In this document: positions 10,345 to 61,852 of the stretch, one piece after another
How the letters are laid out: each line of letters opens with the position of its first letter
Position numbering within the stretch: position 1 is the first letter of the stretch
Assembly: GCF_947500605.1 (NCBI RefSeq)
Contig: NZ_CANMSJ010000003.1
Span: forward strand, 331,816 to 395,815
DNA from: an uncultured Lacinutrix sp.
Lineage (GTDB): Bacteria; Bacteroidota; Bacteroidia; Flavobacteriales; Flavobacteriaceae
Direction of reading: 5' to 3'
Length of the DNA: 64,000 nt
Notes under the pieces: generated by a model
Databases searched by the model: none
What the model saw: the letters and a program-made list of their open reading frames with translations, nothing else
What the model was told of the DNA's origin: nothing
Translations under genes and position numbers: made by a program

Positions 10345-10404
10345 ATTGCTATTGCATATAATAAAACGAAAAATATAAATACATTAAATTTTAGTTTGTA
10401 GGAT

Positions 10405-10427
10405 GAGATTCCTGCCTACGCAGGAAT
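10405..10427 (-). repeat. REP-like palindrome (ATTCCTGC-N4-GCAGGAAT family)
   Basis: gagattcctgcctacgcaggaat; same family as 33934-34004 and 61788-61852. Confidence 0.8.
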
Positions 10428-10428
10428 T

Positions 10429-10788
10429 ATGGCGCAACACAACGAATTAGGAAAAAAGGGGGAGCAACTTGCTGTAGATTTCTTGTTGAAAAAAGGCTAC
10501 GAAATTCTAGAGAGAAACTATACATTTCAGAAAGCCGAAGTTGATATTATTGCAAAAATAAAAGACACATTAGCTATTGTTGAGGTAAAAACGCGCTCAA
10601 CAATAGAATTTGGTAATCCTCAAGATTTTTTAAAACCAAAACAAATTCAACGTTTGGTAAATGCGGCAGATGAGTTTGTAACCGTAAATAAATTAGATGT
10701 AGAAGTGCGTTTTGATATTATTGCTATTGTAAAAGAGAATAAAGAATTTAAGATTGAGCATTTAGAAGATGCTTTTTATCACTTTTAA
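10429..10788 (+). CDS. YraN/UPF0102 family nuclease-like protein
   Basis: GKKGEQLA..L..KGY.ILERN, EVDII, VEVKTR, RFDII. Confidence 0.92.
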   Translation: MAQHNELGKKGEQLAVDFLLKKGYEILERNYTFQKAEVDIIAKIKDTLAIVEVKTRSTIEFGNPQDFLKPKQIQRLVNAADEFVTVNKLDVEVRFDIIAIVKENKEFKIEHLEDAFYHF

Positions 10789-33929: not shown

Positions 33930-33933
33930 GTTT

Positions 33934-34004
33934 TCATTCCAGCGAAGGCAGGAATCTATTTTTAGTTTAGCTTGATTTTGGATTCCTGCCTTCGTAGTAA
34001 TGAC
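33934..34004. repeat. REPIN-like inverted REP doublet
   Basis: tcattccagcgaaggcaggaatct..ggattcctgccttcgtagtaatgac. Confidence 0.8.
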
Positions 34005-41197: not shown

Positions 41198-44100
41198 ATG
41201 CAATACGATTTTAATAGAATAGAAAGAGACTGGCAAAAATATTGGGCAGAAAACCAAACGTTTAAAGCCTCAAACAATAGCGATAAACCTAAATATTACG
41301 TACTCGATATGTTTCCTTATCCATCTGGAGCAGGTTTACACGTTGGGCATCCTTTAGGCTATATTGCCAGCGATATTTATGCGCGTTACAAGCGCCATAA
41401 AGGTTTTAATGTATTGCATCCTCAAGGTTACGATAGTTTTGGTTTACCTGCAGAGCAGTATGCAATACAAACAGGACAGCATCCTGCAATTACTACAGAA
41501 ACCAATATTAAAACTTATAGAAGGCAGTTAGATCAAATTGGTTTTTCTTTCGATTGGTCTCGAGAAGTACGAACTTCTAATCCGGAATATTACAAATGGA
41601 CGCAATGGATATTTATTCAATTATTCGAATCGTATTATTGCAATAATGATAATAAAGCTAAAGATATAACAGAATTAGTCTCTATTTTTTCTTCGGAAGG
41701 AAATGCCAATGTTAACGTTGCTTGCGATGATGATATTGAAGTATTTACTGCCGAAGCTTGGAACAGTTTTTCAACTGAAGAACAACAAGCAATACTATTA
41801 AAATACAGATTAACATACCTAGCTGAAACCGAAGTAAATTGGTGTCCAGTTTTAGGAACCGTTTTAGCAAACGACGAGATTGTAAATGGTGTATCGGAAC
41901 GTGGTGGACATCCAGTTGTACGTAAAAAGATGACACAATGGAGTATGCGAATTTCTGCTTATGCAGAACGTTTATTGCAAGGTTTGGAAGCTGTTGATTG
42001 GACAGATTCTTTAAAAGAAACACAGCGTAACTGGATTGGAAAATCGGTTGGAGCTACAGTGTCGTTCAATGTCACTCAGAGCGAAAGCGAAGAGTCTCAT
42101 AAAATAGAAGTTTTCACCACAAGACCAGATACTATTTTTGGAGTAAGTTTCATGACGTTAGCGCCAGAACACGAACTAGTATCTATATTAACAACAGCAG
42201 ACCAAAAAGAAGCTGTTGAAGCCTATATAGAAAAAACCGCAAAACGTAGCGAACGCGATCGTATGGCAGATGTAAAAACCATTTCTGGTGTATTTACAGG
42301 TGCTTATGCAGAACATCCTTTTACTAAAGAACCAGTGCAAATTTGGATTGGTGATTACGTATTAGCAAGTTACGGAACAGGAGCTGTTATGGCTGTGCCT
42401 TGTGGAGATCAGCGCGATTACGATTTTGCAAAACACTTTAATATTGAGATTCCTAACATTTTTGAAGGCGTAGATATTAGTGAAGAAGCTTTTACCGGAA
42501 AAGACAATGTAAAGATTGCTAATAGCGATTTCCTAAACGGAATGAACTATAAAAAAGCAAGTAAATTAGCGATCTACGAACTAGAAAAACTAGGTCAAGG
42601 AGAAGGTAAAACAAACTATAGATTACGTGATGCTGTATTTTCTAGACAGCGTTATTGGGGAGAACCATTTCCTGTGTATTATGTAAATGGAATGCCACAA
42701 ATGATAGATGCACAACATCTACCAATACAATTACCAGAAGTAGAAAAGTATTTACCAACCGAAGAAGGTGAGCCGCCATTAGGCCGTGCTGATGTTTGGG
42801 CTTGGGATACTAAAAATAACAAAGTTGTTTCTAACGATCTTTGTCATTCAGAGCAAAGCGAAGAATCTCATAATGGTATCTATCCTTTAGAATTAAACAC
42901 AATGCCGGGTTGGGCTGGAAGCTCATGGTACTTTTTCCGTTATATGGAGGAAGCAGCCAATAGAGGAGATGTTTTTGCAAGTGAAGATGCCCTTAAATAT
43001 TGGGAAAATGTAGATTTATATATTGGTGGAGCAGAGCATGCTACTGGTCACTTATTATATTCTCGTTTCTGGGTAAAATTATTAAAAGATAGAGGTTTTG
43101 TAAATGTTGAAGAGCCTTTTAAAAAGCTAATAAACCAAGGGATGATTCTTGGGACTAGTGCTTTTGTAAAGAGAATAGCATGGTCATTATCAGGAGAATC
43201 AGATTTTGATCAAACAAAGCTGCCTTATGTTTGTTTATCAGAAGATATATCTGAAAAAATTATAAATAAAGATGCAGTAGCAATTGTTGAAATAAAGAAT
43301 AAACTTCAAAAAATTATTGATGATTTAGGTATAGGTAATTTACGTGTTAACAATTTTTCTAATGATTTGGATGGTCTTGATTTTATGCCGGTTCATGTTA
43401 AGGTACAATATGTAAATGCTTCAGATGAATTAAATATTGAGGGTTTAAAAAATGATGGTGAGTTTGGAGATGATTATGCTAATGCAATTTTTATAGGAAA
43501 TAAAGGAGAAATAGTTGAAGAAGGAAAAGGTGTGTTCAAAGTAGGACGCGAAGTAGAAAAAATGTCGAAATCAAAATACAACGTTGTCAATCCAGACAAC
43601 ATTGTAGCAGATTACGGAGCAGACAGTCTTCGTTTATACGAAATGTTTTTAGGTCCATTAGAACAATACAAGCCATGGAATACAGCAGGTATTACAGGTG
43701 TGCATAATTTCTTAAAGAAACTATGGAAATTGTATGTAGATGATAATGGTTTAAAAATAAACGACGCAGAACCAACAAAAGACAACCTTAAAACGTTGCA
43801 CAAAACCATAAAGAAAGTACAGGAAGATATCGAGAATTTCTCTTTTAATACTTCGGTTTCTACTTTTATGATTGCTGTAAACGAACTTGGTGCTCAAAAA
43901 TGTACAAGTAAAGACGTACTAGAGCCTTTATTGGTTTTAATATCGCCTTACGCACCACATATTGCTGAAGAATTATACAGTAAATTAGGAAATAGTACAT
44001 CTATTTCTACTGCTGCTTTTCCAGAATTTGAAGCAAGCCATTTAGTAGAGAGTAGTAAAAATTACCCAATTTCATTTAATGGTAAAATGCGTTTTACGTT

Positions 44101-44239
44101 AGAGTTACCAATGGATTTAAGTAAAGACGAAATAGAAAAAGCCGTTATGGCTCACGAAAAAACCATAGCACAATTAGAAGGGCGCACGCCTAAAAAAGTA
44201 ATTGTAGTTCCTGGTAAAATTGTAAATATAGTAGGCTAA
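41198..44239 (+). CDS. leuS: Leucine--tRNA ligase
   Basis: MFPYPSGAGLHVGH, FTTRPDT, NTMPGWAGS, KMSKS; ATG at 41198 after TAAATTTG. Confidence 0.98.
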   Translation: MQYDFNRIERDWQKYWAENQTFKASNNSDKPKYYVLDMFPYPSGAGLHVGHPLGYIASDIYARYKRHKGFNVLHPQGYDSFGLPAEQYAIQTGQHPAITTETNIKTYRRQLDQIGFSFDWSREVRTSNPEYYKWTQWIFIQLFESYYCNNDNKAKDITELVSIFSSEGNANVNVACDDDIEVFTAEAWNSFSTEEQQAILLKYRLTYLAETEVNWCPVLGTVLANDEIVNGVSERGGHPVVRKKMTQWSMRISAYAERLLQGLEAVDWTDSLKETQRNWIGKSVGATVSFNVTQSESEESHKIEVFTTRPDTIFGVSFMTLAPEHELVSILTTADQKEAVEAYIEKTAKRSERDRMADVKTISGVFTGAYAEHPFTKEPVQIWIGDYVLASYGTGAVMAVPCGDQRDYDFAKHFNIEIPNIFEGVDISEEAFTGKDNVKIANSDFLNGMNYKKASKLAIYELEKLGQGEGKTNYRLRDAVFSRQRYWGEPFPVYYVNGMPQMIDAQHLPIQLPEVEKYLPTEEGEPPLGRADVWAWDTKNNKVVSNDLCHSEQSEESHNGIYPLELNTMPGWAGSSWYFFRYMEEAANRGDVFASEDALKYWENVDLYIGGAEHATGHLLYSRFWVKLLKDRGFVNVEEPFKKLINQGMILGTSAFVKRIAWSLSGESDFDQTKLPYVCLSEDISEKIINKDAVAIVEIKNKLQKIIDDLGIGNLRVNNFSNDLDGLDFMPVHVKVQYVNASDELNIEGLKNDGEFGDDYANAIFIGNKGEIVEEGKGVFKVGREVEKMSKSKYNVVNPDNIVADYGADSLRLYEMFLGPLEQYKPWNTAGITGVHNFLKKLWKLYVDDNGLKINDAEPTKDNLKTLHKTIKKVQEDIENFSFNTSVSTFMIAVNELGAQKCTSKDVLEPLLVLISPYAPHIAEELYSKLGNSTSISTAAFPEFEASHLVESSKNYPISFNGKMRFTLELPMDLSKDEIEKAVMAHEKTIAQLEGRTPKKVIVVPGKIVNIVG
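42070..42102 (+). repeat. In-frame REP-like element inside leuS, copy 1
   Basis: tgtcactcagagcgaaagcgaagagtctcataa, translated VTQSESEESH. Confidence 0.8.
42842..42873 (+). repeat. In-frame REP-like element inside leuS, copy 2
   Basis: tgtcattcagagcaaagcgaagaatctcataa, translated CHSEQSEESH. Confidence 0.8.
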
Positions 44240-44265
44240 AACAATGTTAGCTTATTTAGTGATAG

Positions 44266-44299
44266 ATGGATTCTTTTGAAAGAGAGAATCCATTTTTTT
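44266..44299 (+). terminator. Intrinsic terminator after leuS
   Basis: atggattct..agaatccat plus T tract. Confidence 0.82.
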
Positions 44300-44434
44300 A
44301 TACTTTACATTTAAATAAGGTTATTCAAGTTTTTCTATTTATTTTTAGGGTTAGGCTTTGGTTTTTCCGCGGAAGCGATAGAGAAATTGTTTTTAAAATT
44401 AGTTAAGCAATTAGAATAATAGCAAAAAAAGGAG

Positions 44435-61787: not shown

Positions 61788-61852
61788 TGTCATTCCTGCG
61801 AAAGCAGGAATCTATATAATAAAAGTGGATTCCTGCTTTCGCAGGAATGACA
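61788..61852. repeat. Perfect REPIN-like inverted REP doublet
   Basis: tgtcattcctgcgaaagcaggaatc..gattcctgctttcgcaggaatgaca. Confidence 0.9.

Follow-up and report, generated by a model that had tools for sequence, protein, structure and literature searches.

The leucyl-tRNA synthetase (LeuRS) gene leuS of a Lacinutrix-like marine member of the Flavobacteriaceae carries within its reading frame two copies of a short hairpin repeat. The DNA analyzed is a stretch of 64,000 nt from an uncultured Lacinutrix sp. (RefSeq assembly GCF_947500605.1, contig NZ_CANMSJ010000003.1, positions 331,816 to 395,815), hereafter referred to as the window, to which all coordinates apply unless a locus is named. 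We consider it probable, at roughly three chances in four, that both sequences represent a dispersed and for the most part intergenic repetitive extragenic palindrome (REP) tagged with TGTC or CGTC, and that they are tolerated in LeuRS as passengers and exchanged by recombination or gene conversion. The features concerned are the following:

41198..44239, + strand: leuS, an open reading frame (ORF) for a leucyl-tRNA synthetase of 1013 aa, host of both REP copies
42070..42100, + strand: REP copy 1 (site 1), read as V292-T-Q-S-E-S-E-E-S-H301
42842..42871, + strand: REP copy 2 (site 2), read as C549-H-S-E-Q-S-E-E-S-H558
42055..42100, + strand: patch distinguishing the filled from the empty site-1 allele (window versus Lacinutrix sp. 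Bg11-31), with six consecutive synonymous differences (42055-42070) plus the loop
42838..42886, + strand: patch distinguishing the filled from the empty site-2 allele, 49 nt, including a non-REP flank (HNGIYP versus ETVFS)

The ORF encodes a LeuRS with intact HVGH and KMSKS motifs, whose nearest homologues are Lacinutrix LeuRS proteins with Pfam domains PF00133, PF09334, PF13603 and PF08264, and which aligns to a solved bacterial LeuRS with E=3e-164. An earlier reading of the letters alone (the original prediction) had placed two REP-like sequences at 42070 and 42842, and both were found there. Copy 1 (quoted as tgtcactcagagcgaaagcgaagagtctcataa, 42070-42102, 33 nt) and copy 2 (quoted as tgtcattcagagcaaagcgaagaatctcataa, 42842-42873, 32 nt) differ, as had been claimed, by two substitutions (C42075/T42847 and G42094/A42865) and one indel, a single loop G (GAAA versus AAA). 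Both substitutions fall in a single stem base pair, one on each side (C-G in copy 1, T-A in copy 2), and the difference between the copies is therefore compensatory. The extra G of copy 1 puts both copies into a common frame for ...SEESH; translation confirmed that they are entered in different frames and end alike.

Both copies have the same anatomy. In copy 1 a TGTC tag (42070-73) is followed by the stem ACTC (42074-77)/GAGT (42092-95), which encloses a purine internal loop AGA/GAA and an inner GC-GAAA-GC mini-hairpin (42081-88), and by the tail CTCAT (42096-100). Copy 2 consists of the TGTC tag (42842-45), the stem ATTC/GAAT, the internal loop AGA/GAA, the mini-hairpin GC-AAA-GC and the tail CTCAT. 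The internal loop is symmetric, and the inner stem comprises only the 2-bp GC/GC.

When the two halves of leuS were compared by local alignment, this pair was the top match, with a score of 23 (200 codon shuffles: mean 11.7, sd 1.2, maximum 16), which rules out chance similarity. The pattern GTCAYTC-N10-18-GARTCT has three matches in the window (two in leuS and one in an intergenic REP at 61789) against 0.00 expected. An assembly artefact was also ruled out by the presence of the same alleles in independent assemblies and sequencing runs; none of the runs contains the window's own sequence, the best one matching 0.55 of its words. No Rfam family matches either element.

The predicted placement of the elements between conserved blocks of LeuRS proved correct. 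Alignment to the solved LeuRS revealed that site 1 is the turn of a beta-hairpin that leads into the CP1 editing domain, directly before TTRPDT, where copy 1 takes the place of a 5-residue turn. Site 2 is the loop between WAWD...VVSND and LELNTMPGW, and it aligns to a Cys-rich loop of the Neisseria LeuRS, just before the conserved ...DTMDTF/SSWYF block. An AlphaFold2 model of the full protein, based on a 73-sequence alignment, was poor (mean predicted local distance difference test score 51.6, predicted template modelling score 0.33) and unfit to place the loops; it shows only that each element lies between two predicted strands. Tryptic peptides expected from the REP-bearing segments are SVGATVSFNVTQSESEESHK and VVSNDLCHSEQSEESHNGIYPLELNTMPGWAGSSWYFFR.

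The subfamily represented by the leuS copies, written AGAGC(G)AAAGCGAA, is widely dispersed beyond leuS. A scan of metagenomes with the pattern TCAGAGC-N3-4-GCGAAGARTCTC recovered at least 137 copies. Among the 137 matches listed, 120 have TGTC (107) or CGTC (13) two bases upstream, the loops are mostly of the GNA type (GAA 48, GCA 28, GTA 13), and the stem partners are GTCAT with GAAT in 108 cases and GTCAC with GAGT in 7, with 1 mismatch; the guanine-plus-cytosine (GC) content of the contigs ranges from 0.30 to 0.67. Outside the interior of any long ORF (that is, with the longest containing ORF shorter than 200 aa, or with the match within 20 aa of an ORF end) lie 107 of the 137 matches listed, so that most look intergenic; the other 30 lie inside long ORFs, a few of which look spurious.

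A similar picture emerged from the relatives of the window organism. In genome sequencing runs of close relatives the element is covered ~10-25 times more deeply than the leuS flanks; the extra copies are surrounded by AT-rich, stop-rich sequence and adjoin other REPs, and one isolate has three further copies. In the 10-kb flanks of leuS from 80 relatives (~1.5 Mb) we found ~25 intergenic copies of sister subfamilies sharing the head and tail of the element. These were detected with scans anchored on the tail, the core or a long stem, which replaced a generic scan (GTCA plus a stem of 5 or more) that was unspecific (358 matches versus 490 in shuffled DNA). The intergenic copies that the original prediction had supposed thus exist, in the metagenomes, in the relatives' leuS flanks, in the excess depth of the element and as hairpins in the window itself.

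In-frame copies are not confined to leuS. Their Pfam-confirmed hosts elsewhere are alpha-2-macroglobulin, 3-hydroxyacyl-CoA dehydrogenase, a PrmC-like methyltransferase, methylmalonyl-CoA mutase, E1 dehydrogenase, an aminotransferase, FliK, OmpA/DUF3575 and a GT9 glycosyltransferase; with in-frame copies in about ten other protein families, the phenomenon is therefore general. Apart from leuS itself, no gene in the ~1.5 Mb of flanks had a clear in-frame copy, the only candidate being L049:20763, near the end of a 333-aa ORF, and the two leuS loops are therefore extreme hot spots. Clustering of the ORFs within 1.5 kb of the 137 metagenome copies listed yielded no common neighbour and no transposase.

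Several arrangements of these repeats were observed in passing. Tail-to-tail, REPIN-like doublets occur in contigs of ~0.45 GC (L100, L104, L109, L125, L128, L131, L141, L162 and others), with a palindromic spacer of ~20 nt (gtgtacatccacgtggatgtacac). In Bacteroidales-like OmpA/DUF3575 genes (L124, L177 and L183; GC 0.48) the REP lies inside a 105-bp tandem repeat (TDIRHSERSEESPLTGIT…), and a FliK-like protein (L173; GC 0.50) has a long repetitive region made of alternating forward and reverse REPs (VIQSEAKDL/EILRSALND). REPs of the superfamily were also found directly 3′ of the leuS stop codon (L008:12882, L030:13098, L071:12885, L077:12864, L059:12966/13020, L037:13121 and L026:13101); the neighbourhood of leuS, as well as its interior, attracts REPs. 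In the window, positions 44235-44303 gave a sub-threshold Rfam match to the Bacteroides small RNA BTnc201 (22 bits versus a gathering score of 105, E=0.98), which is most likely just the terminator, a hairpin plus T-run after leuS.

The occupancy of the two loops was surveyed in 81 species (80 leuS loci and the window). In the alignment of relatives, a check proposed with the original prediction, the loops are shorter in many species: 41 of the 81 species have a short 36-nt segment at site 1 (FNV-NGHDE-xIEV, with a 5-residue turn), and 58 have a 42-nt short loop at site 2 (VVSND-KINNTT-IHP and similar). An insert replaces the short loop in the remaining species, 40 for site 1 and 23 for site 2, and most of these inserts are recognisable REPs. 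Since short loops are the majority state, and since genes that are ~97% identical can be either filled or empty, the long loops are derived and not ancient LeuRS sequence; in the LeuRS of N. gonorrhoeae, the closest solved relative, the segment is of another length and sequence. Loop lengths are multiples of 3 and the frame is kept through the inserts in all 81 genes.

The occupants are diverse. At least six REP classes are present at the two sites: the AGAGC…GCGAA type of the window, the IASEAKQS type (ATTGC/GCAAT), the GAGCGNAGTCGA type with many different stems, the IPTExSDEES and HAEPVEA types, and perfect 8-bp hairpins with CTTGT or CTTGA loops in either orientation, which read MLKQVQHD when reversed. 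Head-to-head doublets and nested or decayed REP remnants were also found (L013, L004, L006 and L039). Other inserts are not REPs, namely a distinct G-rich hairpin repeat (L058, L059 and L077), short tandem repeats (L045 and L067) and one whole DUF559 domain. On a neighbour-joining LeuRS tree the pattern of presence and absence requires no fewer than 23 changes for site 1 and 13 for site 2, close to the values obtained with shuffled tips (27.5 and 20.1, respectively). Of the 16 doubly filled genes, 5 have one and the same REP class at both sites, where 1.9 would be expected (P=0.011), which favours homogenisation of the REP body.

The non-REP occupants deserve a separate description. Site 1 of a metagenome-assembled relative (L201:6867-7385; P0041/P0042) contains a full DUF559 domain (PF04480, PD-(D/E)XK/Vsr-like), an in-frame insert of 168 aa flanked by terminal inverted repeats of ~27 nt, each with a G-rich hairpin (ATTCCCCATCCTATCCTTCCCCAAGGG / CCCTTAGGGAAGGATTTAGGATGGGAAAT). 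Locus L073 has kept these ends and the start of the ORF (...GYMTGGNNS) with the DUF559 domain deleted, like a non-autonomous derivative. The G-rich palindrome (…tcctccccttcggggaggctaggagggg…, read SSPSGRLGGA) at site 2 of L058:11576-11722, L059:11573-11719 and L077:11591-11722 looks like the DUF559 cassette ends rather than like the TGTC-tagged REPs. The short tandem repeats at site 1 of L035, L038, L049, L045 and L067 are (ttcagaa)n, read FRIQNSEFRIS, and (ttcaaag)n followed by ccaacaacc repeats, read KFKV…PTTNNQQPTT; in L035, L038 and L049 they lie inside loops of the short length.

Comparison of closely related genes revealed how filled and empty alleles differ. Along most of the gene, the leuS sequences of the window, of Lacinutrix sp. 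Bg11-31 (CP025118) and of an uncultured Lacinutrix are ~96-98% identical in nucleotides. They differ in occupancy, with both sites filled in the window, site 1 empty in Bg11-31 and site 2 empty in the uncultured Lacinutrix. The empty site-1 allele reads GT/AAAAGATCATGACGAG/AAAATA, and in the window G…TCTCAT stands in place of AAAAGATCATGACGAG, with a net change of +12 nt. The empty site-2 allele reads ND-AIDNETVFS-LE, the net change there being +21 nt; both net changes are smaller than the element. Outside the two patches listed above, the background divergence is about 1 difference per 40 nt. Simple insertion with target duplication is ruled out by this comparison. Of the claim that REPs had inserted into a coding region, the in-frame REP copies thus stand; the simple insertion does not, the old loop having been replaced.

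Both empty loops contain GGTCAT or GATCAT, resembling the GTCAT head and TCTCAT tail of the element, and the register of the site-2 junction differs between subfamilies (ctt-GTCA versus ctt-tGTCA). Among 200 sequences, all filled site-2 alleles carry L…(H/D)NG(I/V)YP, whatever their REP subfamily. The unclean junctions, the linked synonymous differences and this shared site-2 flank together suggest that old filled and empty alleles have been moved by short-patch recombination.

A further variable segment was noticed in the same gene. Positions 43100-43620 (leuS codons ~635-810), in the region of the leucine-specific domain before KMSKS, form a hypervariable cassette, in which the three Lacinutrix genes are 47-72% identical and encode unrelated peptides, although they are ~97% identical elsewhere. 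The segment measures 25-120 aa among 120 relatives and has a GC content of 0.27, versus about 0.38 in the rest of the gene, which suggests cassette exchange or diversifying selection.

We then asked what is conserved in the elements, the hairpin or the peptide. In the GAGCGNAGTCGA class (14 in-leuS copies, 6 intergenic copies and L049:20763), 83.8% of the cells of the 5-bp outer stem are paired, versus 58.7% after shuffling, and the covariation score is 0.82 versus 0.28, a value exceeded in 0 of 500 shuffles (slid controls 0.07-0.16). The peptides vary as the pairing holds (VTLSAVEES, VISSGVEKR, VRSSTVENS…). Identity between species at third codon positions is 0.74-0.92 within elements of the same class, versus 0.50-0.62 at synonymous positions in the rest of leuS. 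Since the stems covary, synonymous identity is high and the peptide varies, it is the nucleotide hairpin, rather than the peptide, that is constrained or has a recent common origin. Four of the six frames of the element are open. In the coding copies the 3′ half nearly always reads ...SEES, less often ...EAKNL, and never the open basic frame SFRAKRRIS, which points, on small numbers, to a protein-level filter on the reading frame.

With regard to expression, a 9.4-kb contig from a seawater metatranscriptome spans the site-1 element ungapped and then runs into an empty site-2 allele. Because the coverage is ungapped, the site-1 element appears to be present in the RNA and not removed from it.

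The interpretation that best accommodates these data is that the elements are passengers and not LeuRS-specific motifs, so that the protein would need only to tolerate a nucleotide hairpin. The subfamily would be built of a tag, a short covarying stem, a purine-rich core with a GC-GNA/GAAA-GC mini-hairpin and a TCTC(AT) tail, and both elements would be transcribed and, we infer, translated as acidic, Ser/Glu-rich loop extensions of LeuRS. Such tolerance should be easily reached, because four of six frames are open and the 3′ half of coding copies is nearly always acidic. The two loops are family-wide hot spots, occupied in relatives by several REP subfamilies, doublets, nested remnants, the G-rich hairpin and one DUF559 endonuclease cassette. 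Their occupancy would turn over by short-patch homologous recombination or gene conversion, with filled and empty loop alleles swapped across lineages, and probably also by exchange with other genomic REP copies, rather than by clean cut-and-paste insertion. The (G)G/ATCAT of the empty loops may, speculatively, supply microhomology with the GTCAT head and the TCTCAT tail.

Several observations weigh against this interpretation. The extreme preference for leuS is unexplained and could mean selection rather than mere tolerance. Nearest-neighbour folding, as DNA and as RNA, predicted neither leuS copy to be stable (z about 0 versus shuffles), and the case for a hairpin therefore rests on covariation and on non-canonical G.A pairs, which the energy model handles poorly. 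In the filled/empty comparison there was no target-site duplication and no clean junction, the old loop being replaced and the flanks differing, and no true insertion event was caught. The shared site-2 flank seems more in line with a single old filled allele whose REP was later swapped than with numerous independent insertions, and because of it the parsimony counts overstate the number of de novo events. Finally, the metatranscriptome contig could derive from contaminating DNA, and translation as part of LeuRS is deduced from the intact frame and this RNA-derived contig.

The leuS preference would be accounted for if the nucleic-acid hairpin had a function in this gene, either as an mRNA structure that sets the pace of translation where the editing domain begins and ends or influences mRNA decay, or as a DNA structure (a gyrase or nucleoid-protein site, or a recombination signal), the hot spot then being explained by selection. 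Such a function is consistent with nucleotide conservation above that of the host gene, with the covarying stems, with the extreme enrichment in leuS relative to ~1.5 Mb of neighbouring genes, with the position of site 1 exactly at the CP1 entry, and with the linked divergent flanks of filled and empty alleles, which resemble those of old maintained haplotypes. We nevertheless regard it as unlikely: the element is dispensable, since half or more of the species lack it at each site and near-identical strains differ, the occupants are heterogeneous (unrelated G-rich hairpins, microsatellites and the DUF559 cassette), the predicted folds of both window copies are no better than shuffles, and the same element is found in many unrelated proteins. 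Selection could also act on the peptide, if an acidic Ser/Glu loop (…SEESH) were favoured in LeuRS for tRNA or partner contacts, or for metal binding via its His, and had been duplicated in the gene, its likeness to REPs being secondary. That both copies finish with SEESH in spite of different entry frames, and that coding copies elsewhere favour the acidic 3′ half and avoid the basic frame, is in keeping with this idea, which we consider very improbable, because the peptides of relatives vary (IASEAKQSH, VTLSAVEESH, IPTERSDEESH, MLKQVQHD…) while the hairpin is kept, synonymous sites are more conserved within the element than in the remainder of the gene, the identical nucleotide sequence is found between genes in many phyla, and also in other frames and orientations, and the short loop is the majority state.

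A third explanation is repeated de novo transposition, in which a REP-mobilising enzyme targets the (G)TCAT of empty loops and small deletions subsequently restore the frame. The GGTCAT/GATCAT motifs of both empty loops, matching the head and tail of the element, the different registers in which subfamilies join the site-2 flank, the nested remnants and head-to-head doublets, and the numerous state changes on the tree could all be read in this way. However, the junctions are not clean and lack duplications, the net gains of length fall short of the element, filled site-2 alleles have a non-REP flank in common, the linked synonymous differences next to the sites suggest that patches were imported, no gene recurs beside the 137 metagenome copies listed and no mobilising enzyme is known for CGTC REPs; such transposition is in our opinion decidedly unlikely. 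A more far-reaching scenario, which we rate as rather unlikely, is that the LeuRS loops are long-lived landing pads, through which filled and empty alleles, several hairpin families, an autonomous DUF559 cassette and its deletion derivative circulate among Flavobacteriaceae by short-patch recombination. The series of sites would then record the spread of tag-bearing REPs by copy-in at GTCAT/TCTCAT microhomology or by hairpin-associated PD-(D/E)XK cleavage, with a polymorphism that is maintained and not neutral.

Palindromic repeats that lie in frame within genes tend to be treated as an oddity of Rickettsia and of a few REP-rich proteobacteria. The leuS case places them in free-living marine Flavobacteriaceae, in an essential aminoacyl-tRNA synthetase, with an unusual reuse of sites (in about half and about a quarter of the species). 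The filled and empty alleles of near-identical strains provide a natural series on the movement of CGTC-type REPs, for which no enzyme is known, and the locus is a natural test of how a synthetase tolerates a foreign peptide at the entry to its editing domain. On the practical side, REP segments inflate the apparent divergence of LeuRS and can mislead alignments, phylogenies and annotation; many short 'hypothetical proteins' with CHSERSEES, VIQSEAKNL or SFRAKRRIS are translated REPs. Intragenic REPs of the CGTC superfamily, including one in a tRNA synthetase, and the Rickettsia palindromic elements (RPEs) are already described. The family-wide reuse of two LeuRS loops, turnover by allele replacement and the presence of other mobile cassettes at the same sites appear to be undescribed in the literature searched, where we found nothing on Flavobacteriaceae LeuRS or on DUF559 associated with hairpin repeats.

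The relationship of the leuS copies to known repeats is best seen from the intergenic REPs of the window:

61788..61815, + strand: intergenic REP, TGTC-ATTCCTGC-GAAA-GCAGGAAT-CTAT, a hairpin of the canonical CGTC-1 type that makes up half of a tail-to-tail dimer
61825..61852, − strand: its dimer partner, an intergenic REP with the tail CCAC
33933..34004, no single strand: degenerate intergenic tail-to-tail REP pair, 33933-33956 (+) and 33981-34004 (−)
10403..10430, − strand: single intergenic hairpin AATTCCTGCGTAGGCAGGAATCTCAT, with a TCTCAT tail and no GTC tag

The first of these folds as DNA with −7.8 kcal/mol (z=−6.1), and each member of the degenerate pair has 3 mismatches to the 61789 copy. 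As predicted from the ends of the leuS elements, their head and tail recur on intergenic hairpins: the window's intergenic REPs combine a tag and tail as in the leuS copies with a perfect hairpin between them.

In the CGTC-tagged REP superfamily (Di Nocera, De Gregorio & Rocco 2013, BMC Genomics 14:522; PMC3733652), an unpaired CGTC tag (TGTC or CCTC being allowed) precedes a stem of 8-9 bp that starts with A-T and T-A pairs and encloses a loop of 4-5 nt, and a short unpaired tail with the consensus CCA follows. The copies, reported in Bacteroidetes, are dispersed, mainly intergenic, often form inverted dimers, lack a dedicated transposase and are occasionally intragenic and in frame, one host being a tRNA synthetase (PMC3733652). 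The window's intergenic copies fit CGTC-1 exactly, with an 8-bp stem (ATTCCTGC/GCAGGAAT) and the tails CTA and CCA. The leuS subfamily shares the tag (TGTC in both leuS copies), the occurrence of some copies in frame and the many dispersed, mostly intergenic copies with inverted dimers, the latter known from relatives' runs and metagenomes. Its stem agrees only in part, spanning 9 positions of which 6 are Watson-Crick pairs (4 outer and 2 inner) and the other 3 are purine-purine, forming a 3x3 internal loop; the stem starts with A-T and T-A in copy 2, and with A-T and C-G in copy 1. The loop is 3-4 nt long (GAAA, 4 nt, in copy 1 and AAA, 3 nt, in copy 2, with GNA triloops dominant across the subfamily), and a tail is present that reads CTC(AT) instead of CCA. 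The leuS copies are thus a stem-weakened variant within the TGTC/CGTC-tagged REP superfamily. PMC3733652 gives no account of Flavobacteriaceae LeuRS, of a recurrent hot spot or of allele turnover, and LeuRS is absent from the REP-bearing genes in its supplement.

The same study places the Rickettsia elements RPE-4 and RPE-6 in the CGTC-tagged superfamily (PMC3733652), so that the parallel with Rickettsia drawn in the original prediction is more than an analogy. RPEs are likewise palindromic repeats, found both in intergenic DNA and in frame in genes that remain functional, to which they add short loop peptides, and the 1013-aa LeuRS ORF with its intact catalytic motifs is such a gene. RPE-1 (Ogata et al. 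2000, Science) is Rickettsia-specific and 100-150 bp long, whereas the leuS elements measure 30 nt and reside in Flavobacteriaceae; they are RPE-like in behaviour and not RPE-1. The leuS hosts also differ in being free-living marine bacteria, in which many subfamilies recur in two fixed loops of a single gene.

Two other kinds of small mobile repeats share some features with the leuS elements. The REP doublets known as REPINs, formed by the GTAG REPs of REP-associated tyrosine transposases (RAYTs), are reportedly short hairpins, often arranged as inverted doublets with a spacer and served by a cognate Y1 (IS200/IS605-like) transposase (work attributed to Nunvar, 2010, and to Bertels and Rainey, 2011). 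The doublets with a palindromic spacer found in metagenomes resemble them in arrangement, whereas the tag of the leuS subfamily is (C/T)GTC, not GTAG (TGTC in the leuS copies themselves), and no gene recurs within 1.5 kb of its 137 metagenome copies listed. Miniature inverted-repeat transposable elements combine the terminal inverted repeats of an insertion sequence with a target-site duplication; the leuS element is a single hairpin, and the filled/empty comparison revealed no duplication. A structural likeness is offered by the GNA mini-hairpins of the d(GCGAAGC) type, which were reportedly described by Hirao and co-workers in the 1990s and are a structural motif rather than a repeat family. 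Judged by its letters, the commonest core of the subfamily, GC-GAA-GC or GC-GCA-GC, would match them, with flanking purines able to form sheared G.A pairs.

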